In this document: one piece after another, positions 1 to 23,442 of the stretch
How the letters are laid out: the number at the start of each line of letters is the position of its first letter
How positions within the stretch are numbered: the first letter of the stretch is position 1
Source: a virus
Taxonomy: Duplodnaviria > Heunggongvirae > Uroviricota > Caudoviricetes
Length of the DNA: 64,000 nucleotides
Virus record (IMG/VR): IMGVR_UViG_2917886563_000007
Reading direction: 5' to 3' (one strand)
Translations under genes and position numbers: made by a program
Notes under the pieces: model-generated
The model's input: only the letters and a program-made list of their open reading frames with translations
Told to the model about the DNA's origin: nothing
The model's database searches: none

Positions 1-1254
1 ATGCTGGAACAAATGGGCATTGCCGCGAAGCAAGCCTCGTATAAATTAGCACAACTCTCCAGCCGCGAAAAAAATCGCGTGCTGGAAAAAATCGCCGATG
101 AACTGGAAGCACAAAGCGAAATCATTCTCAACGCTAACGCGCAGGATGTTGCTGACGCGCGTGCCAACGGCCTTAGCGAAGCGATGCTTGACCGTCTGGC
201 ACTGACGCCCGCACGGCTGAAAGGCATTGCCGATGATGTGCGCCAGGTGTGTAACCTCGCCGATCCGGTGGGGCAGGTAATCGATGGCGGCATGCTGGAC
301 AGCGGCCTGCGTCTGGAGCGTCGTCGCGTGCCGCTGGGGGTGATTGGCGTGATTTATGAAGCGCGCCCGAACGTGACGGTCGATGTTGCTTCGCTGTGCC
401 TGAAAACGGGTAACGCGGTGATCCTGCGTGGCGGCAAAGAAACCTGCCGCACTAACGCTGCAACGGTGGCGGTGATTCAGGACGCCCTGAAATCCTGCGG
501 TTTACCGGCAGGTGCAGTACAGGCAATTGATAATCCTGACCGCGCGTTGGTCAGTGAAATGCTGCGTATGGATAAATACATCGACATGCTGATCCCGCGC
601 GGCGGCGCTGGTCTGCATAAGCTATGCCGCGAACAGTCGACAATCCCGGTGATCACAGGCGGTATAGGCGTATGCCATATTTACGTTGATGAAAGTGCAG
701 AGATCGCTGAAGCCCTGAAAGTAATCGTCAACGCGAAAACTCAGCGTCCGAGCACATGTAATACGGTAGAAACGTTGCTGGTGAATAAAAACATCGCCGA
801 TAGCTTCCTGCCCGCATTAAGCAAACAAATGGCGGAAAGCAGCGTGACATTACACGCAGATGCTGCCGCAATGGCACAGTTGCAGCCAGGCCCTGCGAAG
901 GTGGTTGCTGTTAAAGCCGAAGAGTATGACGATGAGTTTCTGTCATTAGATTTGAACGTTAAAATCGTCAGCGATCTGGACGACGCCATTGCCCATATTC
1001 GCGAGCATGGCACGCAACACTCCGATGCGATCCTGACCCGCGATATGCGCAACGCCCAGCGTTTTGTTAACGAAGTGGATTCCTCCGCTGTTTACGTTAA
1101 CGCCTCTACGCGTTTTACCGACGGCGGCCAGTTTGGTCTGGGCGCGGAAGTCGCGGTAAGCACGCAAAAACTGCACGCGCGCGGCCCAATGGGGCTGGAA
1201 GCACTGACCACCTACAAGTGGATCGGCATTGGTGATTACACCATTCGTGCGTAA
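1..1254 (+). CDS. proA: gamma-glutamyl phosphate reductase
   Basis: 417-aa ORF whose translation ([20 protein letters not shown]...) matches E. coli ProA as recalled; full length, start at window position 1. Confidence 0.95.
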
Positions 1255-1368
1255 ATAAAATCGGGTGATGCAAAAGTAGCCATTTGATTCACAAGGCCAT
1301 TGACGCATCGCCCGGTTAGTTTTAACCTTGTCCACCGTGATTCACGTTCGTGAACATGTCCTTTCAGG

Positions 1369-1444
1369 GCCGATATAGCTCAGTTGGTAGAGCAGCGCAT
1401 TCGTAATGCGAAGGTCGTAGGTTCGACTCCTATTATCGGCACCA
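1369..1444 (+). tRNA. thrW: tRNA-Thr (thrW-like), integration hotspot
   Basis: 76-nt sequence GCCGATATAGCTCAGTTGGTAGAGCAGCGCATTCGTAATGCGAAGGTCGTAGGTTCGACTCCTATTATCGGCACCA with cloverleaf-compatible arms, CGU anticodon loop region, CCA end. Confidence 0.9.
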
Positions 1445-1649
1445 TTAAATCAATTAGTTACGATTAACACCCCTCTTTGTCTGCATCATGAATTTTTTCG
1501 TGTAACTGCATGTGTAAGTAATTTTCGTAAACGTACATCAACAATAGAACATCCGTATATCTGATTGGTTCAGTCTTGTTGATTTTTTCATCTTGATGAA
1601 ACGATGTTCCAGATATTGATGTCGGACATTTTTAGTGATATGCACGAAA

Positions 1650-1696
1650 TGTTAAGCTGCTATTCTTGCTTAGGCAGCAAGAATAGCAGCTTAACA
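1650..1696 (-). terminator. 21-bp-stem perfect inverted repeat hairpin downstream of the 1767..3032 gene
   Basis: tgttaagctgctattcttgc / gcaagaatagcagcttaaca arms are exact reverse complements with a 5-7 nt loop; minus-strand 3' flank has only a short U run. Confidence 0.4.
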
Positions 1697-1766
1697 GGCC
1701 TATACAGGAGGCGGTTTGGAAACGGAAAATCTAGCACATTTAGGGTGTTATTTAACCAATCCTACA

Positions 1767-3032
1767 TCAGAAATCCTTTTTCAATACCAACACACAGTAG
1801 TAAAGCGTTGTCTTGATCAGATGATTCAAGTTGTGAACTTCTCTAAATAAAAGCAGTGACTTACGAATGAATTCAATGAACGTAATTTCTTGTGCTTTCT
1901 CTCTATTCATCCCTTCTTTGAAAGGGTAATACGTGATGACCTGAGTAGACTCCTTGTACTCATATTTGTAATGGGCTATCCCGTTTCTTAGTCGATTATC
2001 AATTGCCGTTTCATCAATCTTGTAGAAGCATTTATCAATAAACTGGAGTTTGGTTCCCAGGTCGGCATCGGCAAAAGCATTCAATGAAACAGCCTCCCGG
2101 CGCGGCTCATTCCTTCTCGTCACTTTCAAAGAGGGTTCAAATTCATTGTGATCACCGCGATGCAGAAGATTGTTAAGCCCCGCCAATAAGATCAACTGCC
2201 TAGAAAACACTTCTGCTAAGTCTTTATAAAAGTTGTTACAGGTATCAAAATCTGTTGTTGAAATCCTTGCAGCAACCGGGTTGTACTCCCCCTCTTTAAC
2301 GTAGTCATAAAAGAACGTCGCGCGAAATGGCAGATCTAACTCGATGATTTTAGGGTAAAGACTAAGGCAGTCTTGATGCAGATTTTGGAGGAAATTATTT
2401 GCCAGAATCTCATCAATATAAGCGACAGTTTTGTCATGATGATGCGCGTGAAGCCATTGATAAAGACCAGGTAGTTCATTAGAAAGCTCTTCGTTTTGCT
2501 CATGAATAGTAAAAGGGGATGACATGATTGAAGTAGCTGAGTACAACGCGGCCAATACGTCTTGTTTTTTATGAGAACGCAATGTAACCCCGGGTATCTT
2601 GTTGCAGATCCCATCTAACTTATCGATGTCGCCACGTTTGTACTGGGTAATAATGCGCTGCAAGTCTCTTTGCATCGGAAGAAGGCGATTCAATACCTCA
2701 AGGCGTTGAGCAAGATGATAATATGCGTCTTCACCAAGTTCACTGACAACCCGTATGAATGTCGTTTTCCCCATTTCGTACTTGCCAAAGTAGGCAGGGA
2801 AATCTAGATGCAAATCGACAAATGGGTTTTCCCCTTTAAATGGCCCATCAAAATCAACAATGTCCTCTGCCCCTTTTAACGTTCCATCCGGATGGCCAAT
2901 AATGAAAGAAATACATTCCTCACATACCGGGCAAGCAAACTGAAATGGTTGTACTTCTCTGTTGGACATGCCAATCCTGCAATCGATCAATGTACCGCAG
3001 GTATCGCATTTGAAGCATTTGCAGATGTTCAT
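1767..3032 (-). CDS. hypothetical protein with N-terminal Cys-rich zinc ribbon and C-terminal R-x4-H (HEPN-like, Abi-like) motif
   Basis: 421-aa ORF; N-terminus CKCFKCDTCGTLIDC...CPVCEEC; near C-terminus RLRNGIAHYKYEY resembles the Rx4-6H HEPN RNase motif of AbiD/AbiF-like proteins; low-GC codon usage relative to proA. Confidence 0.5.
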   Translation of the reverse strand: MNICKCFKCDTCGTLIDCRIGMSNREVQPFQFACPVCEECISFIIGHPDGTLKGAEDIVDFDGPFKGENPFVDLHLDFPAYFGKYEMGKTTFIRVVSELGEDAYYHLAQRLEVLNRLLPMQRDLQRIITQYKRGDIDKLDGICNKIPGVTLRSHKKQDVLAALYSATSIMSSPFTIHEQNEELSNELPGLYQWLHAHHHDKTVAYIDEILANNFLQNLHQDCLSLYPKIIELDLPFRATFFYDYVKEGEYNPVAARISTTDFDTCNNFYKDLAEVFSRQLILLAGLNNLLHRGDHNEFEPSLKVTRRNEPRREAVSLNAFADADLGTKLQFIDKCFYKIDETAIDNRLRNGIAHYKYEYKESTQVITYYPFKEGMNREKAQEITFIEFIRKSLLLFREVHNLNHLIKTTLYYCVLVLKKDF

Positions 3033-3489
3033 CCTTCCTCACCTTCATCTTTCTGATTAGGCTGTAATTCTACCTTACTGCAACTATGCTTTCACGACGT
3101 GAGGCCTGACTTACCTAGGGGCGGTTTAGAGATCGAGAATTATTGTACGGTATGCCCGTTTTTGAACGGGTGGTGTTATCGCAATAGGGTGTACTCCCCC
3201 GCTATATGGCATTTGGAGTGGCTTTTCCCTAACCGGATAACCTAAACGCGATGCTGCCAAGACGATAATTTAAAACCGATAGCCACTGGCGCTAAATCAA
3301 TCCCTTATGGGCTGGTGTGGTTAAATAACGAGCTAAACATACAAGATTTTCCGTTTCCCAAACTGATCCCAATACATGTCGTTTTGTTGATTGTCGCTCT
3401 ATATGGCTGATTTTAAGATAGCCCTTCCCTGTCTACTTCCATGTGTGGTGTAATCCCTTGCGAGATTAAGGTTTCTTTCGAGAGATAGC

Positions 3490-4149
3490 ATGGAATTATT
3501 CGAAAATTATTTGTCAGCGTTACCTAAAAAAAAGCGATTGAGTGAAGTCAAGTTGACTATCCTGAAGAGATTATGGGGCTCGGATGATATTGATTTTCCT
3601 AAACCTTGGGTCTCATCAATAGAACTACTGGAACTGACAGGGCAAAAGTACTTCGATAGACGAACAAGAGAATTGCGAGATGAACTAGGCTGTGATCTCG
3701 AAAGCTCGTACATTGCGGAGTTCTCGGGGCATGCTTGGCGGCTGAAATCAAGTATGATTGCCCCACCAATGGAAAGGGAATACCTGACAGAATCACAACG
3801 ATCCGGTTTATTTTCTAACCACAGCAATACATGTGCAACATGTGGTAAAACTGTTGCAGGTGGGGTCAGGGGGCTACAAGCGGATCACAAAATACCTTTG
3901 TCACGTGGTGGTGGAAATGAGTTAACCAATTGGCAAGCTCTTTGCCACAATTGCAACGTAGGTAAGAGAAGAGCATGTGAGGGGTGTACTGATGATTGTT
4001 ACACATGCTCATGGGCATTCCCTGAAAAGTTCGGGATTACTACAATGCTCCATCTGCCAGAAGCTGCTTTAAGAAAAGCTCAGCAGCTAGCCGATGCAAA
4101 TGGGATTTCATTAGACGAAATCGTTGCCTACGCAATACGCAAGCTCTGA
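3490..4149 (+). CDS. HNH endonuclease-domain protein (candidate restriction endonuclease)
   Basis: 219-aa ORF; C-terminal HNH motif ...CATCGK...ADHKIPLSRGGGNELTNWQALCHNCNVGK...; convergent with a C5 methyltransferase gene. Confidence 0.6.
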   Translation: MELFENYLSALPKKKRLSEVKLTILKRLWGSDDIDFPKPWVSSIELLELTGQKYFDRRTRELRDELGCDLESSYIAEFSGHAWRLKSSMIAPPMEREYLTESQRSGLFSNHSNTCATCGKTVAGGVRGLQADHKIPLSRGGGNELTNWQALCHNCNVGKRRACEGCTDDCYTCSWAFPEKFGITTMLHLPEAALRKAQQLADANGISLDEIVAYAIRKL

Positions 4150-4215
4150 ATATCATTTGACTCGAGTGGTAACGCCAACTGTTGTTTTTTCATGATGTCA
4201 ACAGCTTCGAGTGCT

Positions 4216-5199
4216 TTACGGATTTGCCTTCCTGTTGCCTCGGCAACAGGGGGGGGGGAAAGCGTTACCGACTTGACGATAAGCAGCTGTTTTTTTACCA
4301 GAGAATTTCCACCAGTCGGGGAAACCTTGGATTCGTGCAGCCATTCTTACAGTCAAACGAGGCATATTTTCAAAACCAGCCCGAACCTTTCCGTCTCTTC
4401 CAACATACCCGATAAACCCCTTTTCAGGGCCATTATCCGCTATGGAATGTCCATTGACTCCAAGCGCTTGCCAGGATCTTTTGGCTCTTGTCGGGCCAAG
4501 ATCTGGCCCCCCATGCTTATGGGAACCGCCAACAAGTGTAGGAGCTATATTATCTGCTGCCTTTCTCCAGGCTTCAGCTCCTTCCCAACCTCCCATTGAC
4601 ATTAAGTCAAAGAGGGCATCACCCACAGTCGGCGGTATCAACGTTTCACTCGGCCAATGAAAATGAGCTGCATATTCACCACGCAATGCGACTAAAAGAA
4701 CACGTGGGCGAAGCTGAGGAACTCCGTAATCAGAAGCATTATGAAGTTTCCAAAAGGTCTTATAACCCATTGCAGAGAAAGCATGATCTAGTTCTTGCCG
4801 ATATTGTTTAAACTTTGGGTCTAACAAACCTGAAACATTTTCAATCATTACTGCTTTTGGCTTAATAGTGTTCACAATTTTGAGCGCTGTCGGAAACAAA
4901 TCACGTTCATCATCTTTGCCAAGTTGCTTCCCTGCTTTTGAGAATGGTGGGCAGGGCACTCCCCCTGCAACCAAGTCAACATCAGAAAAATTATATGCAG
5001 TGTGTTCAGCAAAATGCTTAACGCAACCCTCTATGATATCTCCCCAACCTAAAGAATGGAGGTTATTGTTGAGGCGAAGAGTTTCGCAGGCTGCTGGATC
5101 AATCTCGACGAGTGCGCGGTGAGCGAAGCCAGCGTTATGTAACCCTAGAGCTTGACCTCCTGCCCCTGCACAAATCTCTACAGATGTATATTGTAACAT
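4216..5199 (-). CDS. DNA (cytosine-5)-methyltransferase, C-terminal tail affected by poly-C frameshift
   Basis: 327-aa ORF with C5-MTase motifs: EICAGAGG (motif I), GGVPCPPFSKAG (PC motif IV), MIENV (ENV motif VI), GNAF near the C-terminus; run of 10 C on coding strand right after GNAF PPP. Confidence 0.8.
   Translation of the reverse strand: MLQYTSVEICAGAGGQALGLHNAGFAHRALVEIDPAACETLRLNNNLHSLGWGDIIEGCVKHFAEHTAYNFSDVDLVAGGVPCPPFSKAGKQLGKDDERDLFPTALKIVNTIKPKAVMIENVSGLLDPKFKQYRQELDHAFSAMGYKTFWKLHNASDYGVPQLRPRVLLVALRGEYAAHFHWPSETLIPPTVGDALFDLMSMGGWEGAEAWRKAADNIAPTLVGGSHKHGGPDLGPTRAKRSWQALGVNGHSIADNGPEKGFIGYVGRDGKVRAGFENMPRLTVRMAARIQGFPDWWKFSGKKTAAYRQVGNAFPPPCCRGNRKANP
4249..4258. repeat. homopolymeric G10 (C10 on coding strand) tract inside the methyltransferase 3' end
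   Basis: Counted directly: ...cggcaacaGGGGGGGGGGaaagcg...; a 9-nt tract would give the tail PPPVAEATGRQIRKALEAV..., which looks like a natural motif X tail. Confidence 0.9.
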
Positions 5200-5598
5200 G
5201 CCATTAAACCTGTATATAAAAACAGTTGTATATTTATCTGATCAGAGACCATTACGCAACAAATTGTACAAAACAAGCAGTATCGTCGCCATTGAACCGG
5301 TCAGCTTAGTTACTTGATTACTGTATGACAAGGCAATCTACTACTTTGTTTTGGAATCCTCGATTTATCAGAGGACTAAAATTCATTAGTACTATGGGCA
5401 TCATCTGGATCAGATAAGCATTGTCTAATGCTGGTTGAGTAAAATGCCTCAACTGAGCACGAAAAAAACTACTATCTGTTTACATGATGTTCTGTCCGTA
5501 TGATGTATTGCGTCCACTGTAAGTAGCGGACGCATTATGCAAGGAGTAAATAAAGAAGAAAGATTAGTGATGAAGATTGGGAATGCTGCTCGTAGAAT

Positions 5599-5940
5599 TC
5601 AGCCTCCTAGGTCACTTTGGCTTCGTCGTAACAAGCCAGTTGCCTGTCGTGCTCGCAGGATATCTACCGCTCGAAGATAGGGTGATTGTTCCCGACAGTA
5701 GAACCCTCTGCGATCGATACGAACCAGTTCGTACTTATCTACCAAGAAGTTGACTGCATCGGCCAGGGTAATTCCGGCATCAATATGTTCCTTAATAACT
5801 GTTTTATCACTGAACGGCGTGTCGTTCAGTGTCAGGCCATAGTGCTGTTCCAGCAGGCGTGTCAGTAGCATTTGCCAGACAGCTACGGGCGACAGACAGG
5901 GCTTCGCCGCCCGCGAAATTGTAGCAGGTAGAGTTTTCAT
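5599..5940 (-). CDS. CbtA/YeeV/YkfI-family toxin
   Basis: 113-aa ORF resembling the YeeV/YkfI toxin family (…[15 protein letters not shown]…[14 protein letters not shown]…[11 protein letters not shown]…). Confidence 0.75.
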
Positions 5941-5959
5941 GCTTGCTCTCGTGAATTAG

Positions 5960-6277
5960 TTAGCGTTGAGTGGGATAAACAGCGATGTATGCGTAGCCGC
6001 AACTACCAAGGGTATCGGCTTCGCAGGTGAAACCATTGTGGTACAGGTTGACGCAGTGGGCATGTCGGGGATTCAGTTCACCGGTGATCAGCATCAATTC
6101 CATCTGGCTGATAAAGTGCGGGAAAGTTTCATCCAGTTTCCGGCATTCGGCGTCACTGAACTTACCGATGATGCTGGCCCGGTCAGCCAGGTAATGCAGC
6201 CGGTTCCCCTCCTGCACAAGGCGGGCTCCCAGGCGCGGCGTGATATCCCGCTGCAGGCCCCATGTGGTGTTGCTCAT
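5960..6277 (-). CDS. CbeA/YeeU/YafW-family antitoxin
   Basis: 105-aa ORF directly upstream of the toxin; …CFGARLVQEGNRLHYLADRA…ELMLITGELNPRH… resembles YeeU-type antitoxins. Confidence 0.75.
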   Translation of the reverse strand: MSNTTWGLQRDITPRLGARLVQEGNRLHYLADRASIIGKFSDAECRKLDETFPHFISQMELMLITGELNPRHAHCVNLYHNGFTCEADTLGSCGYAYIAVYPTQR

Positions 6278-6295
6278 TTATAACCTCTTTTATTG

Positions 6296-6529
6296 TCAGT
6301 TCAGGGTGATACTCATCAGGCAGGCATACGGTCCGTTGCGGTCCTGGCGGCGTTGGGCGTATACCGCCAGCACACCGGGAATGTCAGGAACCACCTGACC
6401 GGTGTAATGACAGACGCTACCGTGCCACTGATATTTTCCGGTGCAGTAGCGAAAGATTCGGGACTCAGGATGCTGGCGGTATATCGTCATTGCCCGGCGT
6501 TTACTGATAATTTTCATGTAATACCTCAC
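6296..6529 (-). CDS. YeeT/YkfH-like DUF987 protein
   Basis: 77-aa ORF (…MKIISKRRAMTIYRQHPESRIFRYCTGKYQWHG…) resembling YeeT family; conserved position between RadC-like and antitoxin genes. Confidence 0.65.
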   Translation of the reverse strand: MRYYMKIISKRRAMTIYRQHPESRIFRYCTGKYQWHGSVCHYTGQVVPDIPGVLAVYAQRRQDRNGPYACLMSITLN

Positions 6530-7002
6530 AGCAGACCGTGTCCTGCGAACGAATAGATTTGCCTGCCACCAACAATCAGATGGTCAGGGACACGGATATC
6601 CACCAGTTGAAGTACCTGAGTCAGTCGCTGCGTGAGGGCTTTGTCAGCCTGGCTGGGCGTCGTCTCGCCGGAAGGATGGTTATGCGCCAGTATCACCGCC
6701 GCCGCATTGAAGTGCAGTGCACGTTTGACCACTTCCCGGGGATGAACCTCGGTGCGGTTAATCGTGCCACTAAAGAGCGTCTCATGGGCGATAAGCTGGT
6801 TCTGATTATCCAGATACAGCACCCGGAACTCTTCCCGCTCAAGTGCGGCCATATGCAGTCGCAACCACTCCCGAACGGCGTGAGTGGAGGTGAAGGCTAC
6901 CCCGGGCTCATGCAGATGCCGGTCCAGAATCCTGAGCGCCCGCTGAATGAGACGCCGGTCCTGTGGCGTCATCTCGCCGGGTAAAAAGGAGAGCTGTTTC
7001 AT
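6526..7002 (-). CDS. RadC-like JAB/MPN domain protein (YeeS/YkfG family)
   Basis: 158-aa ORF with HNHPSG…T-P-S-x-AD motif typical of RadC-like JAB domain. Confidence 0.8.
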   Translation of the reverse strand: MKQLSFLPGEMTPQDRRLIQRALRILDRHLHEPGVAFTSTHAVREWLRLHMAALEREEFRVLYLDNQNQLIAHETLFSGTINRTEVHPREVVKRALHFNAAAVILAHNHPSGETTPSQADKALTQRLTQVLQLVDIRVPDHLIVGGRQIYSFAGHGLL

Positions 7003-7017
7003 CCGTTGTTCCTCCGT

Positions 7018-7476
7018 TCAGTCGATGATACGCAGAATGGAGTGAGCTTCAGGATGCTGCAGGGCATAGTCCCGCAAGCGATAATAGTGTGCGGTCATTG
7101 CGTCACATTCTGTACGACAGGCGTGATGGCTGTATTCAATCAGGCAGACCGCGATACCTGCGGCTTCCACACTCATTTCCGCACCATTACCGTTCATGCT
7201 GTTGAACAGATGCCATTTATCACCACCGTCAGCATCAGGGGCCATAAACGCACCGCCATTGCTGAGCGTGTAAAAGGACCAGATACCACCGCTGTACTCA
7301 TCACAGAAGCGCTCCATCCAGCCGAAAATACGGGGTTCCAGCGTTATCCACTGCGGAATAGCGCCAAAATACAGCGGCCAGAAATCGAGGCGCTGTTCGT
7401 CAGGTACTGGTGTTGCAGTGAGGTCAAATTGAGGTTCATTAGCGGACATCAATTCGCGTTTAGTTTGTGTCGTCAT
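7018..7476 (-). CDS. antirestriction protein (KlcA/ArdB-like, YfjX/YafX family)
   Basis: 152-aa ORF; …DEQRLDFWPLYFGAIPQWITLEPRIFGWM…YRLRDYALQHPE… resembles E. coli YfjX/YafX. Confidence 0.75.
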   Translation of the reverse strand: MTTQTKRELMSANEPQFDLTATPVPDEQRLDFWPLYFGAIPQWITLEPRIFGWMERFCDEYSGGIWSFYTLSNGGAFMAPDADGGDKWHLFNSMNGNGAEMSVEAAGIAVCLIEYSHHACRTECDAMTAHYYRLRDYALQHPEAHSILRIID

Positions 7477-7561
7477 GGATATTCTCCGTCAATAAAAACG
7501 CCAGCGACGATGGCTGGCGTATGGGAAATAAAGGGCATGCAGGGATGATGAATGGGTGTGG

Positions 7562-7798
7562 TCAGGAGGAGGATGCTCTGAGGATGCCTGACTTGCGGAT
7601 ATAACGGTTAAGCCCTTCACCGGCATCAGGTTCAAAGCACCACGCCCGCCAGACCATTCGACCTTCAGAGTCTCGAACCACCAGGCGGAAGTGGCTGCAC
7701 TGGTCATCTTCAATAGCGATATTTTTATACCGGCAGGTAACCGCTTCAGCCTGCTGTCGGGTGAACGGTCCCGGTGGCAACATATGAGATTCAGACAT
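7562..7798 (-). CDS. DUF905 protein (YkfF/YfjZ-like)
   Basis: 78-aa ORF …[15 protein letters not shown]…EDDQ…HFRLV…W…FEPDAG… matching the YkfF family pattern. Confidence 0.7.
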
Positions 7799-7875
7799 TC
7801 GGTGTACCTTAAAAGCAAAAGCCCCTGACGCAGACGCGTCAGGGGCTTTGGGAGTATGCAGGTGTCGGGTGATTG

Positions 7876-8286
7876 TCAGTAACCGGTTTGTACCTTATAC
7901 AGCCGCAGGGTTTTACTGCCCCGGACAATTTTCACATACAGGGCATTATCTTTCGTGCCTCGCACAAAACCGGCCTGCACATCGCCCTTACAGTCACCAC
8001 CATCGTAAGGAATGTTGACGCCGGTCTGACGCACCAGATCAATAATCCCGAAGCTTAAGTCCTCACAGGCCGGGCCCGGCAGGTCCTGAATCAGGGCAAA
8101 TTTATGGTCGTCGCTGACACCGGTCAGTGAGCACATGGAGGTGTTGATGTCGTTTCCCTGGCACCAGTACTCCTGGCCGGGATTGTCTTTATCCATCAGG
8201 CTTGCCGGAAGTTGAGCGGCACCGGCACTGAATGCGGCAAGTGACAGAATGAGAGCGGGTACAGCAGAGGTCATTATTTTCAGCAT
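7876..8286 (-). CDS. secreted hypothetical protein (signal peptide, 4 Cys)
   Basis: 136-aa ORF with N-terminal hydrophobic signal sequence ending AAQ. Confidence 0.5.
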
Positions 8287-12093: not shown

Positions 12094-12367
12094 CTCAACT
12101 CCGCTGAAAAGTAAAACATAAAACGGTAAAACCAAATGGTTTTACCGTTTAAAAGGAAATGTTCAGGGGAATGATATATATCTTAATGTTTTTAGAATGG
12201 ATTCATATATGATGTTGATCTTATTCAAGATATCCTAGAGTATCATTCTGTTGATAACATATTGAATTTGGTTAAAATAATTGAGCCTGATATCCCTTTT
12301 TACTGAATTTCAAGAGGTATTGGGTTGTGTTCGTTCGCCCAATTCTATTGATGACAAGGAAAAGCAA

Positions 12368-15300
12368 ATGGTTAGTAGCCAGTATCCCCGGGGTTCAGAA
12401 TGGCATAAGTGGGATTTACATATTCACACTCCAGCATCTTTTCATTGGAATGGCCCGAGATTTAAGTCAGATCCACGCTCACCAGAGAACGCCCCACTAG
12501 TGGATGCAATGATCAATGCTATGAATGCAGCAGAACCAATCGCATTTGCGATTATGGATTATTGGACCTTTGATGGATGGTTTGCGTTAAAACATCGATT
12601 GACGCAAGAAGATGCCCCCAAGCTAGAAAAAACCGTTTTTCCTGGAATTGAATTGCGGTTGATGGCGCCAATGCGTGGAAGGCTAAATGCTCACGTTCTT
12701 TTTTCTGATCATATACCAGATCAGGAGCTTATTGATTTCAAGAGTAAACTAGAGGTTGCTCTAATAAATAAGTCATTATCAGATTCAGCCTTAATCCAAA
12801 TAGCTAGGGAGGCTGCACCAGATAAATTGCGGCATCATAGTCTCAACCAACAAAAGATTCTTCAATCTGATGCTGATGCTCTCAAGGCTGGTTCAATAAT
12901 AGCCGAGGTTACATGTGAGAGTTATCAAAAAGCAATTAACAGTGTCAGCAAAAATCAAGCTATTGGGTACATGCCATTTGATACCAATGATGGGCTTACT
13001 GAAATTGAGCGTAACGCGCATTATGCATTCGCATTAACTCTTTTCAAGACATCACCAATATTTGAAACAAGGGATTATGCTACGTGGGCAGCTTTCGCTG
13101 GTGTAAAGGTCCCTGAAAATGAAAGGTGGTTTGATGCTTTTCAAAAGGCTTTAAATAATAAACCTAGACTTGCTATTTCAGGGAGTGATGCTCACTGCTT
13201 TGTTGGAGAACCTGGTAACAATGATCGCCGAGGATATGGTGACTACCCTTCAGGAAAGGCAACATGGATAAAGGCTAATCCAACATTTGACGGATTAATG
13301 CAAGCAATAAGAGAACCAGCAAAACGTTCATTTATTGGTGCTATTCCTAAAAAACGGAAATTAGTAAGCGAAAACAGAAGTCTATTTATTGAAAAGCTAG
13401 AAGTTAAAAAATCAATTGATTCATCAATCAATGAATCCTGGCTCGACAATACGGATATACATTTAAATCACGATTTAGTCGCTATTATTGGTAATAAAGG
13501 TAGTGGTAAAAGTGCATTGGCTGATATTGCAGCGTTGCTTGGTAACTCTAAACAAAGTCATCATTTTTCCTTCCTAAAGGAAAATCGATTTAGAGGAAAA
13601 ACAGGTGAGCCAGCACGTCACTTCAATGCAAAAATAGTATGGAGTGATGAAAAAGAGTTAACAAAAAACCTTAATGATAATCCAGCAACTGAAAATGTTG
13701 AATTAATAAAATACATTCCACAAGGCCATTTTGAAGAGTTGTGTAATGCTCATGTATCGGGCCAATCAGATGCATTTGAAAAAGAACTAAGATCTGTAAT
13801 CTTCTCACATGCAGATGAATCTATACGCTTAGGTGCTCATGATTTTGAAGATCTGATAGAAAAGCAGGAGAGCTCTCTTCGAAGCCAACTAGAAAGCTAT
13901 CGTAGTGAGATGCATAAACTCAATGAACAAGTAATGTTTATTGAGAGCCAAATGACCGATGAAGCAAAAAAAGCACTTGATGAAATGTTGGCTCAAAAAG
14001 TTAGATTACTGGAAGAGTTGATCAAAGCAAAGCCAGAAGAAGTTCCTGAACCATCTAATGAGCTTACACAGGAACAACAACAAATATCTGAACAGCTATC
14101 AAACATCAATCAAGAATTAGAAAAGTTACAGAAGCAGCAAGAATCAGACCTAGAAGAACTTACAAAGTTAGCCGGAAAGAGAAAAGCAAGCAAGAATATT
14201 AAGGCTGGTTTTGAAATCGTCAAACGTGCAGTTAATCAATTTGTGTCAGAGTTTGATTCAGATGCTAAACTCCTTGGTTTGGATATAGAGAGTTTAGTTA
14301 GAGTTGATGTTGATGAAAAAACTCTCTCTGCATTAGACGATGCTGGTTCACTTCGTGAAAAAGAAATCAAAGAACGTCAATTAACCCAAGTGGCTAGTAA
14401 ACAATTAATTTTGGAGAAAAAAGCTCCACTAAATGCACAGTTGAATGCCCCACAACAAGCATACCAGTTGTTTAAAGAACAGCTCAAAGCTTGGGGTGAG
14501 AAACATGCAGCATTATTAGGAAACAAAGATGATCCAGATACACTCGAAGGTATCAAGCATAGAATATCTAAACTGGAGCAACTTCCAAGTCAACGATTAG
14601 AATTACATGAGAAACGAAACGATTTGACTCGAAAAATTTTTACAATTCTTAATGAGCAAAAAGAGAATCGTGAAACCCTTTTCGAACCAGTACAATCACT
14701 TATTCAAAATAATATTCTTATCCGTGATGAATACAAACTACAATTTAGAGCTGAACTAAGTAGCACTGCAGATCTAATTTCAAATAGATTATTTTCCATT
14801 GTTAAGCAAGCGTCGGGTGAATTTAGGGGCGAATCAGAGAGTCTTTCAGTAATTAAAGACCTTATGGATCGACATGATTTAAATGACCAAGAATCTTTAC
14901 TCATGTTTGTCCAGGAATTGCACAGAAAACTAGAGAGTTCTTCTAAGAATCCAGTTGGTGTAGCTTCATTGTTACGCAAAGATCGTACAGCTAATGAAGT
15001 TTATGACCTTATTTTTGGCTTAGAGTACCTTGAGCCAAGATATACATTAATGTTTCAAGATGCTCAAATAGGACAATTGTCTCCTGGACAAAGAGGGGCC
15101 TTACTTCTGATTTTCTATCTGCTTGTGGATAAAGGAAATACACCAATAATTCTGGACCAGCCTGAAGAGAATCTTGACAATGAAACTATTGTTAGCCTGC
15201 TTGTACCTGTTTTAACGGAAGCAAAGCAAAAACGACAGATTATTATGGTTACACATAATCCGAATCTTGCAGTTGTTTGTGATGCAGAGCAAATTATCCA

Positions 15301-15442
15301 TTGTGAGTTTGATCGCACAAAGGGGCACAAAATAACATATACCCCAGGAGCTATTGAGTGTAGCGTAATTAATAACAAAGTGGTTGATGTTCTTGAAGGA
15401 ACTATGCCTGCATTTGATAATCGTAGAATGAAGTATATGTGA
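12368..15442 (+). CDS. PHP-domain nuclease fused to SMC/Rad50-like ABC ATPase with long coiled coil (Ppl-like candidate antiphage protein)
   Basis: ORF 12281..15442 (1053 aa); best start ATG 12368 after AAGGAAAAG RBS. N-term PHP motifs (WDLHIHTP…, …SGSDAH…), Walker A IIGNKGSGKS, about 450-aa coiled-coil region rich in E/K/Q/L, C-terminal Walker B/D-loop ILDQPEENLD and H-loop MVTHNP. Confidence 0.7.
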   Translation: MVSSQYPRGSEWHKWDLHIHTPASFHWNGPRFKSDPRSPENAPLVDAMINAMNAAEPIAFAIMDYWTFDGWFALKHRLTQEDAPKLEKTVFPGIELRLMAPMRGRLNAHVLFSDHIPDQELIDFKSKLEVALINKSLSDSALIQIAREAAPDKLRHHSLNQQKILQSDADALKAGSIIAEVTCESYQKAINSVSKNQAIGYMPFDTNDGLTEIERNAHYAFALTLFKTSPIFETRDYATWAAFAGVKVPENERWFDAFQKALNNKPRLAISGSDAHCFVGEPGNNDRRGYGDYPSGKATWIKANPTFDGLMQAIREPAKRSFIGAIPKKRKLVSENRSLFIEKLEVKKSIDSSINESWLDNTDIHLNHDLVAIIGNKGSGKSALADIAALLGNSKQSHHFSFLKENRFRGKTGEPARHFNAKIVWSDEKELTKNLNDNPATENVELIKYIPQGHFEELCNAHVSGQSDAFEKELRSVIFSHADESIRLGAHDFEDLIEKQESSLRSQLESYRSEMHKLNEQVMFIESQMTDEAKKALDEMLAQKVRLLEELIKAKPEEVPEPSNELTQEQQQISEQLSNINQELEKLQKQQESDLEELTKLAGKRKASKNIKAGFEIVKRAVNQFVSEFDSDAKLLGLDIESLVRVDVDEKTLSALDDAGSLREKEIKERQLTQVASKQLILEKKAPLNAQLNAPQQAYQLFKEQLKAWGEKHAALLGNKDDPDTLEGIKHRISKLEQLPSQRLELHEKRNDLTRKIFTILNEQKENRETLFEPVQSLIQNNILIRDEYKLQFRAELSSTADLISNRLFSIVKQASGEFRGESESLSVIKDLMDRHDLNDQESLLMFVQELHRKLESSSKNPVGVASLLRKDRTANEVYDLIFGLEYLEPRYTLMFQDAQIGQLSPGQRGALLLIFYLLVDKGNTPIILDQPEENLDNETIVSLLVPVLTEAKQKRQIIMVTHNPNLAVVCDAEQIIHCEFDRTKGHKITYTPGAIECSVINNKVVDVLEGTMPAFDNRRMKYM

Positions 15443-18762: not shown

Positions 18763-20160
18763 TCAACACTCGATTTTTTCATAAATAGAGGCCTGTTCTA
18801 AGATCCAGCTCTCAATTTTTTCATGCCATTTACGCAACAAATCTAATGGACGACGACGGTAGTGTTTCTCAGCTAGAGCACTAGGTTTATGGCCCATAAT
18901 CTGCGCAACTATGCCAGTTGGCACTTCGACCCATTCGGCGAGCGTACCAAAACTACGACGTAATCCATGCAGGCTGATGTGTGGTAATTCAGCCTTAGCT
19001 AAGGCCCGATTGTGTGCGGAACGCGGTTCAATAATTTTGCCGCTTTTGCTATTACTCCTGAAAACCCAATCCTCCTTATTTACGTCAGAATTTGGTGTTT
19101 GCACCAATGCGCGTAACAGGTGAGTGACATAAGGAGTAAGAGGTATGATACGTTCGCCTTCGATCTTGTCTTTAATCCGCATACTTGACCATTTGAAATC
19201 GACGTCAGACCACCGAAGTGACGCAATTTCTTCGCGTCGCGCTCCGGTGAGTAAAAGTACCTGGAGATAGGCCGATGCAATGGGATTGTTGAGGTTACGC
19301 ACGGCACTGAACCAGCTTTTTAACTGTTCTTTTTGTAAGCAATCTCCCGCTTTACTCGCTGATACTGGAACCAATTTTCTCACGTTATGATCTTGTGCAA
19401 GATCGCCATGGATTATTCCCTGATATTTTTTCTGGTAATTAACCCATTTGATAAATGCACGCAACAGACGGTAGGCATGAGCAGTGACGGTAGGCCGATT
19501 TTGTCTTTCTGTACTTAGCCATGCGGCAATGTTCTCTGGTGTTAGTTCCGATAACGGTAGGTCGAGCAAGCTAGCCAATGGTCCAGCCGAGGTTGGGCCC
19601 CGGCCTCTTTTTTTACTTTCTCCTCCACGGCTGGACAAGTTCACGTGATCGGCAATATAACGTGCAGAGTAAGGACGTTTAGTTTTTGCGCTGATTCCGG
19701 TTCTCAATTCTTGAAGATAATCTTCCCAAGCGCTTGAGAAGGTTACCTTCGTTTTACGAGATTCAGCCTGCTGTGATTCCGCTTCAGCAATTTTTTCTGC
19801 TTTAGCTATACGCGGATCTATCCCAGTATCGATTAATGTTTGCAGCCGCCTGGCTTCGGCCCTGGCATCATCAATCCTCCAATCGTTAATGTTGCCAATG
19901 GTCATGCGAAGGGTTTTTCCCGCATATACGCTTTGGAACACAAAAGCTTTTGTTCCGCGAGTTGCCCGGCATGCCAGAGTTGTTACATCCGCATCCCAAA
20001 GAAATGCTTGGTTTTTCCCTTCAGTTAAAGCAAATTTTCGAATACGCTCGAAGGTGAGTTTTTGTCTCGGAAGTGCCATTTTTGGGCTCCAGATGAGAAA
20101 GGTTACATCACCATAATGTAACGGCTGGTGTAAGTAAATTAGGGGAATACACATCAACAC
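18763..20160 (-). CDS. tyrosine integrase (P4/IntF-like)
   Basis: 465-aa ORF (alternative start at 20079, MALPRQK); C-terminal catalytic residues …HGLRRSF…IMGHK…Y…; adjacent to the tRNA-derived repeat. Confidence 0.85.
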   Translation of the reverse strand: MLMCIPLIYLHQPLHYGDVTFLIWSPKMALPRQKLTFERIRKFALTEGKNQAFLWDADVTTLACRATRGTKAFVFQSVYAGKTLRMTIGNINDWRIDDARAEARRLQTLIDTGIDPRIAKAEKIAEAESQQAESRKTKVTFSSAWEDYLQELRTGISAKTKRPYSARYIADHVNLSSRGGESKKRGRGPTSAGPLASLLDLPLSELTPENIAAWLSTERQNRPTVTAHAYRLLRAFIKWVNYQKKYQGIIHGDLAQDHNVRKLVPVSASKAGDCLQKEQLKSWFSAVRNLNNPIASAYLQVLLLTGARREEIASLRWSDVDFKWSSMRIKDKIEGERIIPLTPYVTHLLRALVQTPNSDVNKEDWVFRSNSKSGKIIEPRSAHNRALAKAELPHISLHGLRRSFGTLAEWVEVPTGIVAQIMGHKPSALAEKHYRRRPLDLLRKWHEKIESWILEQASIYEKIEC

Positions 20161-20261: not shown

Positions 20262-20310
20262 CGCATTCGTAATGCGAAGGTCGTAGGTTCGACTCCTATT
20301 ATCGGCACCA
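20262..20310 (+). repeat. 49-bp direct repeat of thrW 3' end (att core; pseudo-tRNA)
   Basis: cgcattcgtaatgcgaaggtcgtaggttcgactcctattatcggcacca identical to 1396-1444; flanking approx 20 bp also similar (t(c)taaatcaat(a/t)agttac). Confidence 0.9.
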
Positions 20311-20324
20311 TCTAAATCAATAAG

Positions 20325-21488
20325 TTACACATCATTAGTACCTTCCTTATTTTTTGACTGGGACAAATTTGGGACCGATGGGTTCAGGATCGAGTCTATT
20401 TGCCGTGCGTGTTCGGTAAGGTGATTAGGTGCAAGGTGAGCATATCGACGAACCATTTCGATAGACTCCCAGCCTCCCATTTCCTGTAACACTGACAACG
20501 GGACTCCGGCTTGAACCAGCCAACTTGCCCAGGTGTGTCTCAAGTCGTGAAATCTGAAATCATCAATACCAGCCCGTCTCAGCGCCGCTTTCCAGGCTGT
20601 GTTTGCGTCATACCGCATCTTCCTTACTGTTGGCGCTTTCGTTCCGTCTGGTTTGGTACAGCTTTCCTTGTACACAAATACCCAACGGTGATGATTCCCG
20701 ATTTGTTTTTTCAATACGCGACATGCAGTATCATTCAGCGCAACGCCAATTGCGCGGTTTGATTTACTCTCTTCCGGGTTTATCCATGCCACCCGGCGCT
20801 GCATATCTATTTGTTGCCATTCAAGGTTGATGATGTTCGAGCGTCTTAAACCTGTTGCCAGTGCAAATTCAACAACAGACTTTAATGGCTCCGGACATTC
20901 ATCAATCAGCCTTTGTGCTTCATGAGGCTCCAGCCAGCGGATCCGTTTATTCTTTGGTTGAGGCACTTTAATAATTGGTGCCTTATCCAGCATTTTCCAT
21001 TCACGCTCTGCGGCTCTTAGCAGGGCCTTTATAAATGAAAGATGCGTTGCCTTCGTTGCAACGGACGCTGGTTTTGGCGTGTATTCTGGAACTGGTTTCC
21101 CTTTTTTTCTGCATGCTTCTGCCCTGAGTTTCCAGTTTTCCTCATGACGCCGGTTCGTCATTTTCTGCATTGCTGAATAAATTTTTGATTCAGTAATGTC
21201 TCTTAGTTGCATTCCTGCGAAATGTTGAAGCCAGAATCCGATCCGGCTTTTGTCATCGTCCAGTGATTTTTTATGTGCTTTCTCTTCGAGCCACCTGACA
21301 CACGCCTCCTCGAACGTCATATCAGGTATTTCACCAAGTTTGCTGACCCGCCATGCTTCAGCCTTTAGCTTGTCATGGAGCTCTGTCGCCTGCCTTTTGT
21401 CCTTTGTTCCAAGAGACTGTTTAAATCTTTTACCGTTCGGCAATGTGAAACTGGCGTACCATATTTCACCTCTGCGGAAGAGTGACAT
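20325..21488 (-). CDS. int: tyrosine integrase (P22/DLP12 IntD-like)
   Basis: 387-aa [44 protein letters not shown]… matching P22/DLP12-type Int as recalled; stop codon 14 bp from tRNA repeat. Confidence 0.9.
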
Positions 21489-22884: not shown

Positions 22885-23442
22885 TCATGCAGCCTCCCGA
22901 CGGGCAAGAATCCTTGAGCCGAACGCCATCAACTCGCCACGATCAACGGTCGTAAAGTGGCAGTGTGTACGGGGGTATGGGTGCCAGATAATGAGCATCG
23001 AGCCTTTATTATTTCCACTCACGGGTTTCCCGGTGAGTGGGTTAATAAATGCCAGTCGTCCTGCCGTGATGAATCTGACCTCACTGGCGGTTTGTATCGC
23101 TTCATGAAACCATCCGACAGATGTGTCAGCAGGCAGTAACATTACACATCCCACACTACTGAATTTGTTTTCAGTGGCTGCCTTTTTCACAAAAGGGGAA
23201 ATATTGCTGTATGGTGGATTCAGCCAGACATAACCAGAGGCATATCCCATTGCTTCAGGCCATGAAGTGGTTAATGTGTTCTGCTCCTGTGAGATAAAAA
23301 GCCGACATAGCCGGTTTTTTTCGTTGGCTGCAGCATCAAGTTGAAAAACGAACTCTGCATTAAGCGCAGCAAAAATCTCTGGTGGTGTGCGCCAGCTGTC
23401 GCGATGTTCGGCAGGAGTATTGCTTCCGGTGAAATCAGTCAT
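22885..23442 (-). CDS. phage DNA N6-adenine methyltransferase (Dam-like, orphan)
   Basis: 185-aa ORF with NPPY motif (…VWLNPPYSNIS…) and N-terminal …WRTPPEIF… typical of phage N6A MTases. Confidence 0.75.
   Translation of the reverse strand: MTDFTGSNTPAEHRDSWRTPPEIFAALNAEFVFQLDAAANEKNRLCRLFISQEQNTLTTSWPEAMGYASGYVWLNPPYSNISPFVKKAATENKFSSVGCVMLLPADTSVGWFHEAIQTASEVRFITAGRLAFINPLTGKPVSGNNKGSMLIIWHPYPRTHCHFTTVDRGELMAFGSRILARREAA

Follow-up and report, generated by a model that had tools for sequence, protein, structure and literature searches.

We analysed a stretch of 64,000 nucleotides (the window) from the IMG/VR virus record IMGVR_UViG_2917886563_000007 (Caudoviricetes), in which two neighbouring genes form a candidate Type II restriction-modification (R-M) pair. 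The gene at 3490–4149 on the plus strand encodes a putative Type II restriction endonuclease of 219 amino acids (aa). The gene at 4128–5199 on the minus strand encodes a C5 cytosine DNA methyltransferase (hereafter methylase), which has 356 aa when read in frame and is frameshifted as written, leaving a 327-aa open reading frame (ORF) at 4216–5199. In the sequence as written, the two ORFs are thus convergent and separated by 66 bp (4150–4215).

The nuclease matches the Pfam family HNH (9e-11, residues 115–159) and has the beta-beta-alpha-metal core with catalytic His and Asn of the HNH, or His-Me finger, nucleases (PF01844). This core covers residues ~100–180 and includes D132-H133, N147, N156 and two Cys4 zinc sites (C115/C118/C152/C155 and C163/C166/C170/C173). 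The catalytic residues and all eight zinc-binding cysteines are invariant in 39 aligned homologues, and every one of them is kept in the window protein. The core is preceded by a winged helix (residues ~19–90) and followed by a part that resembles a ribbon-helix-helix (RHH; residues ~183–219), whose strand-helix-helix matches RHH_1 in 10 of the 39 members (best 1e-5). Weak matches were also observed to ICEA (NlaIII-like) in five members and to Endonuclease_7 in all members. When compared to the PADLOC models, the nuclease matches the Type II restriction endonuclease model PDLC03478 at 5e-21 (73 bits) over profile positions 45–210 of 219. The combination of winged helix, two-zinc HNH core and RHH appears to be a somewhat unusual build.

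The nuclease family is large, with 348 matches at E<=0.001, and matches from other phyla are still 56–67% identical. We found no named or structurally solved full-length relative; the best sequence match in the PDB is EcoKMcrA (E=0.01), and it is confined to ~50 residues of the HNH core (107–156 aligned to 209–262). A full-length homologue was absent from all 50,697 phage records, which yielded matches to the HNH core only, and from all 72,556 plasmid records, which yielded no match at all. We thus rejected the possibility of a homing or phage-type HNH protein.

The methylase belongs to the Pfam family DNA_methylase (PF00145; 2e-65, 221.7 bits, residues 5–319) and also matches the dcm model TIGR00675 (5e-44). 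Among the PADLOC models, it matches the MTase_II model PDLC03304 at 5e-112 and the DruM models at 1e-136. Motif IV contains the catalytic cysteine (GGVPCPPFS). Motifs I, IV (PCP), VI, VIII and X are conserved among the orthologues examined, and motif IX was recognised by eye from the alignment. As written, however, the gene is not intact. An alignment with intact relatives of 356 aa shows that the frame is lost right after motif X, where GNAFPPP is followed by CCRGNRKANP and a stop codon, whereas the relatives read VAEATGRQIRKAL and onwards. The last 39 residues are thus replaced, and with them the helix of motif X and the C-terminus are lost.

The frame is lost at a run of 10 G at 4249–4258 (10 C on the coding strand), which encodes the F-P-P-P of motif X and has one base more than in any intact relative. 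It is the sole G/C homopolymer of at least seven bases in the window. With one G deleted in silico, the ORF encodes 356 aa, extends to 4128 and shares 22 bp with the 3' end of the nuclease gene (4128–4149). The same 219-aa nuclease, 356-aa methylase and 22-bp 3' overlap are found in the E. coli relatives ET245 and O157:H7 strain 4276. The 66-bp gap is therefore present because the methylase ORF stops early at the frameshift. A preliminary description of the locus had reported two tail-to-tail genes, 66 bp apart, for an HNH protein and a Dcm-like C5 methyltransferase. The two ORFs and their orientation are as reported, and the HNH assignment is borne out by the Pfam match and by the complete set of catalytic and zinc-binding residues. 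The family of the methylase was also recognised correctly, whereas its frameshift had been overlooked, and a pair as written cannot work as an R-M system. Likewise, the spacing is true of the sequence as given but is an artefact of the frameshift, the native arrangement being the 22-bp overlap.

To place the long G run, we compared it among relatives. The segment compared has 293 nt in the window and 292 nt in all 56 complete E. coli genomes that carry the pair. Nine G are present in ET245, in Citrobacter sp. and at the loci L065–L071. The run of nine is limited to the sub-lineage of the window (ET245, Citrobacter sp.); in O157:H7 no run reaches six bases, and in more distant orthologues FPPP is encoded by codons that form no long run. 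We therefore rejected a conserved phase-variation tract as a feature of the family, since the run occurs in one sub-lineage only; O157 and O111 have it in interrupted form, and other lineages lack it. The identical nuclease protein is common in public assemblies (e.g. GCA_013745515.1 and GCA_000408805.1), with entries in 370 indexed blocks of the collection. The seven loci that were read out among these blocks all have nine G and a methylase of 356 aa. A database search for the exact 327-aa truncated methylase found no record and thus no independent copy of the frameshifted allele. The closest metagenomic relative (L064, positions 7563–7800 of the ENA contig contig_1538_polypolish) has eight G, and its methylase was called at just 252 aa. 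This relative has a second 1-nt deletion, which lies within CCAGGATC, a sequence that overlaps a Dcm and a Dam site. From its name only, we take this contig to be a nanopore assembly. Errors at methylated motifs are associated with nanopore base-calling, and we interpret the differences in this contig as errors of that kind. The eight G, together with the deletion at a methylated motif, suggest that the G tract is a hotspot for miscalls.

We next consider whether the two genes belong together. For this, we surveyed 50 loci of the nuclease family, with one genome per species, using tblastn and ORF reconstruction. A C5 methylase is adjacent to the nuclease at 48 of the 50 loci; at 46 of these it is orthologous (47–98% identity), and at two more it is another C5 methylase. 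The identities of nuclease and methylase covary, with examples of 99/98, 80/85, 71/79, 61/67 and 39/50%. Gene order is less constant: about 37 pairs are convergent, with gaps between −70 and +60 bp that are commonly −4 or −22, nine are divergent and one or two are in tandem. The overlap of 22 bp is common to the loci from E. coli, Citrobacter, Dryocola and Dickeya. The convergent pair also occurs in a cyanobacterium, a Vibrio and a Micavibrio, each time in a wholly unlike neighbourhood. As the flanking genes differ completely between these three lineages, we conclude that the pair moves as a unit.

Decay of the pair was found to be one-sided. At four loci (L037, L043, L050 and L056), the nuclease is truncated or frameshifted next to an intact methylase, and an intact nuclease next to a broken methylase was observed at none of the species loci surveyed. 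Linkage that outlasts rearrangement, co-divergence and one-sided decay together match the prediction for a toxic nuclease that is guarded by its methylase. With strong matches of both proteins to their families and linkage conserved across phyla, the pairing of HNH nuclease and C5 methylase is far beyond chance.

Taken together, the family shows what characterises Type II R-M systems, i.e. separate but adjacent genes, an intact nuclease site and joint inheritance without a nuclease that persists alone. We thus consider it probable that the two genes constitute a Type II R-M module, and at the level of the family, a candidate Type II system with an HNH nuclease is well supported by sequence comparison. 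The preliminary description had put forward the same candidate, and it agrees with the conserved linkage, the varied gene order, the covarying identities, the one-sided decay and the PADLOC endonuclease match. The grouping with homing, Vsr or McrA-type enzymes that would have spoken against it was not observed. Three points nevertheless weigh against this interpretation. The HNH nuclease family contains no characterised enzyme. Taken literally, the sequence pairs an intact nuclease with a frameshifted methylase, which should kill the cell. Finally, the methylase is not listed in the only published methylome for strains that carry the pair (O111 95JB1 and 95NR1), in which m5C was undetectable (PMC6602927).

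Other functions of the HNH protein have to be weighed against a restriction enzyme. It is common for a C5 methylase gene to overlap with the gene of a small endonuclease, as in dcm-vsr, and the protein could be a DNA-repair nickase, i.e. a functional analogue of Vsr that fixes T:G mismatches arising from the deamination of 5-methylcytosine (5mC). The four loci that lost the nuclease and kept the methylase would also be tolerated under such a function. We regard it as very improbable, because neither Pfam nor NCBIfam gave a Vsr-family match, the fold is a winged helix plus HNH, and the top profile is a Type II restriction endonuclease model that is matched over nearly its full length. Furthermore, a winged helix and a dimeric RHH suit a duplex palindrome better than the sensing of mismatches, and a harmless nickase should at times outlive its methylase, which is the case at none of 48 loci. 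We give even less credence to a modification-dependent Type IV enzyme, of the McrA or the winged helix-HNH kind, whose specificity is not shared with the methylase. Many family members have been named 'McrA' by JGI pipelines, which we take as generic pipeline names, and EcoKMcrA is the best PDB match; however, the alignment excludes the 5mC-reading domain of McrA, and the gene hardly ever occurs alone. Next to a 5mC methylase, a 5mC-dependent enzyme would destroy its own host DNA, and a G6mATC-dependent enzyme would kill Dam+ Escherichia hosts. A precedent in architecture are fusions of winged helix and HNH with 224–283 aa, which are proven to depend on N6-methyladenine (6mA) (PMC11037411). 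Such modification-dependent fusions should stand alone, and 87% of them have no methylase among the three genes on either side (PMC11037411). The adjacent and co-evolving C5 methylase at 46 of 50 loci is the opposite of this stand-alone criterion.

While these comparisons favour a Type II R-M module for the family, the copy in the window is either mis-sequenced or non-functional. Since the literal reading should be lethal, this copy must be mis-sequenced, silenced or somehow rescued. We lean towards a homopolymer miscall in the assembly as the origin of the extra G, and the methylase would be intact if the tenth G were a sequencing error. A real frameshift by recent slippage is a possibility that we take seriously without favouring it; the copy would then be a decaying or switched-off R-M system, in which the methylase is a pseudogene and the nuclease is transcriptionally silent or is tolerated because +1 slippage on the C10 tract (CCC-C) still yields some full-length methylase. 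The sequence as given does have 10 G, tract length differs among close relatives (8, 9 and 10 G), and a +1 shift at any CCC-C would restore the exact wild-type protein. In addition, the long phage ORFs of the window are intact at 641, 533, 853 and 1137 aa, which are the lengths of their counterparts in phage lambda. The assembly is thus not generally riddled with indels, and a real mutation stays plausible. On the other hand, the tract is the longest G/C homopolymer of the window and therefore its most miscall-prone site, and the relative with eight G, presumed from its name to be a nanopore assembly, has its other deletion in a sequence with Dcm and Dam sites. The gene is in frame at all seven loci with the identical nuclease and in 56 of 56 E. 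coli genomes. Moreover, the nuclease carries no damaging change, and an intact nuclease with a broken methylase is seen at none of 48 other loci.

If the pair is a Type II R-M module, its parts suggest how it would work. The methylase would add a 5-methyl group to cytosine in host DNA at a site that is probably palindromic, and the 219-aa nuclease would cut the identical site when unmethylated, so that methylation protects the host. The winged helix may read and bind the site, whereas the C-terminal RHH, being obligately dimeric, would hold two subunits on the palindrome and may autoregulate the system. Cleavage would take place in the one-metal site of the HNH core, braced by the two zinc clusters. 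The module would travel as a unit and here occupies the variable cargo slot beside thrW on a CP4-6-like integrative island. A more elaborate version of this mechanism appears unlikely to us: the RHH would clamp the dimer on the palindrome and also act as a built-in repressor of the two overlapping, convergent genes, and the slippage-prone C9 tract over Pro-Pro-Pro would make protection dosage-sensitive or switchable in Escherichia and Citrobacter, the whole representing a new Type II family. Upstream of the nuclease gene, no inverted repeat was found, and promoter-like and terminator-like matches were at chance level, with no evidence for an operator.

The gene pair is located on an island that is integrated at thrW. 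The window starts with proA (1–1254), followed by the tRNA-Thr(CGT) gene thrW, which ARAGORN places at 1369–1444 on the plus strand. The 25 nt at the 3' end of thrW (1420–1444) form the core of the left attachment site and are repeated exactly and directly at 20286–20310 (plus strand; 0 expected by chance). The two repeats bound an island of 18.9 kb, with its integrase at the far end (18763–20160, minus strand). The right copy is also the left end of a tandem lambdoid prophage, whose integrase lies at 20325–21488 (minus strand). When aligned to K-12 with blastn, homology ends at 1462 and resumes at 5522. The segment in between (1463–5521) is variable cargo that holds a gene for a 421-aa protein in addition to the R-M pair, and its GC content is 0.37–0.49 compared to 0.51–0.59 in the flanks. 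The backbone of the island starts with the CbtA toxin (5599–5940) and the CbeA antitoxin (5960–6277), both on the minus strand (Pfam 5e-63 and 7e-53), which are equivalent to ykfI and yafW. Including DUF987, RadC, the antirestriction gene, DUF932 and the GTPase, this backbone is that of CP4-6 in E. coli K-12. Both elements are integrated at thrW and share the gene order ykfI/yafW, ykfH, radC-like ykfG, antirestriction-like yafX, DUF932 and GTPase. They differ in that K-12 has only ~380 bp between thrW and ykfI, whereas the island in the window has 4 kb of cargo there.

Three further genes of the window were recorded. The antirestriction-family gene equivalent to yafX in K-12 (7018–7476, minus strand) is only a few genes away from the R-M pair on the same island. 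A low-GC patch of the island (0.34–0.41) encodes a 1053-aa ATPase of the SMC_N/AAA_21 type (12281–15442, plus strand), which the PADLOC models Ppl, mad3 and AriA match weakly. This gene may represent further defence cargo. In the lambdoid prophage, a phage-type Dam adenine methyltransferase (22885–23442, minus strand; PF05869, 2e-56) adjoins a YqaJ-like recombinase gene.

The 421-aa protein that shares the cargo segment with the R-M pair is encoded at 1767–3032 on the minus strand and consists of an N-terminal beta domain with CxxC...CxxC and a helical domain. The helical domain contains the invariant R349-N-x-I-A-H354, which is of the HEPN type (Rx4H), and no database family was found for the protein. 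The gene is carried on an insert of ~1.8 kb (1610–3401) that is missing from ET245 and Citrobacter sp. Elsewhere, homologues occupy a P2-prophage cargo site next to a DUF4145 gene, or have Gabija-like OLD and UvrD genes as neighbours, together with toxin-antitoxin pairs. Based on its motif and neighbours, we propose the protein as a candidate single-gene, HEPN-like defence protein. The preliminary description had called this gene HEPN-like and the region near thrW a defence islet. The invariant RNxxAH motif makes the first label reasonable as a proposal. The second is plausible, as homologues of the gene lie in defence hotspots elsewhere and the segment 1463–5521 is variable and absent from CP4-6 of K-12.

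Within E. coli, 56 of 5426 complete genomes contain both genes. All of these copies are chromosomal, and no genome has a single one of the two genes. In two further genomes, only a remnant of ~125 nt from the 5' end of the nuclease gene was found. The copies that we inspected sit beside thrW. Two of the genomes that carry the pair are the outbreak strains 95JB1 and 95NR1, for which the published methyltransferase list does not include this C5 methylase (PMC6602927, Table 3). The same island tip also lies beside thrW in Citrobacter sp. Res13-Sevr-PEB04-36 (L009), which we compared with positions 3402–8150 of the window. The Citrobacter sequence is 82.6% identical in proA and 92% identical in the island at the nucleotide level, whereas the R-M proteins are ~98–99% identical. 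The low identity of proA next to a near-identical R-M pair indicates horizontal transfer between genera. Across the 5426 complete E. coli genomes, the highest identity to the segment from proA to thrW in the window (1–1460) is 96.3%. A non-coli Escherichia or a member of a cryptic clade is the probable host.

Judged by its sequence and distribution, the pair is best described as a putative, widespread and uncharacterised R-M system of an ordinary kind that forms part of the cargo of a cryptic prophage-like island. If confirmed, the nuclease would represent a new family of restriction enzymes with winged helix, HNH and RHH that has no structural representative and spans proteobacteria, cyanobacteria, spirochaetes and other phyla. 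The system would then introduce an unrecognised 5mC motif into the methylome and hinder the uptake of DNA, including in pathogenic E. coli (O111:H8/H- and part of O157:H7), and the same would apply to the Escherichia assemblies that share the exact nuclease of the window. The tip of CP4-6-like islands next to thrW can be seen as a cargo slot for defence genes. Furthermore, a single homopolymer base sets both the apparent spacing of the genes and the truncation of the methylase, which calls for caution before biology is built on either.

A description of this HNH/C5 methylase pair was not found in the literature. Two apparent matches were dismissed: M.EcoGIX is an unrelated plasmid enzyme, and papers on methanotrophs deal with different systems, one a TGGCCA methylase and the other a GCGCGC system whose nuclease has 340 aa. 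When comparing the pair to known systems, we find that each covers some of its properties. Druantia type II combines DruM with DruF, DruG and the large helicase DruE, and the window resembles it only in the match of the methylase to the DruM model (1e-136). However, the conserved partner of the methylase is the HNH gene, and the longest ORF in the window has 1137 aa, whereas DruE helicases have ~1,800–2,100 aa. We thus rejected Druantia II and attribute the resemblance to the clade of the methylase. The 6mA-dependent Type IV enzymes such as SruGXI share with the window nuclease an N-terminal winged helix followed by HNH and a similar size, but they mostly stand alone and are toxic in Dam+ cells (PMC11037411). 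In contrast, members of the family of the window nuclease are almost always encoded beside a C5 methylase that co-evolves with them, have Dam+ enterobacteria among their hosts and possess a further zinc cluster as well as a C-terminal RHH.

The PADLOC models PDLC03478 (REase_II) and PDLC03304 (MTase_II), which we understand to be built from Type II enzymes in REBASE, provide the only links that we found to catalogued Type II enzymes. At 73 bits, the nuclease is a remote relative that falls outside the cluster of PDLC03478. Other Type II enzymes of the HNH kind are KpnI, SphI, NlaIII/IceA1 and PacI. The pair is similar to Type IIP systems that combine an HNH (beta-beta-alpha-Me) nuclease with a C5 methylase, for instance Hpy99I/M.Hpy99I. 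Both are mobile units of two adjacent genes, which encode a small HNH nuclease containing Cys4 zinc sites and a separate methylase.

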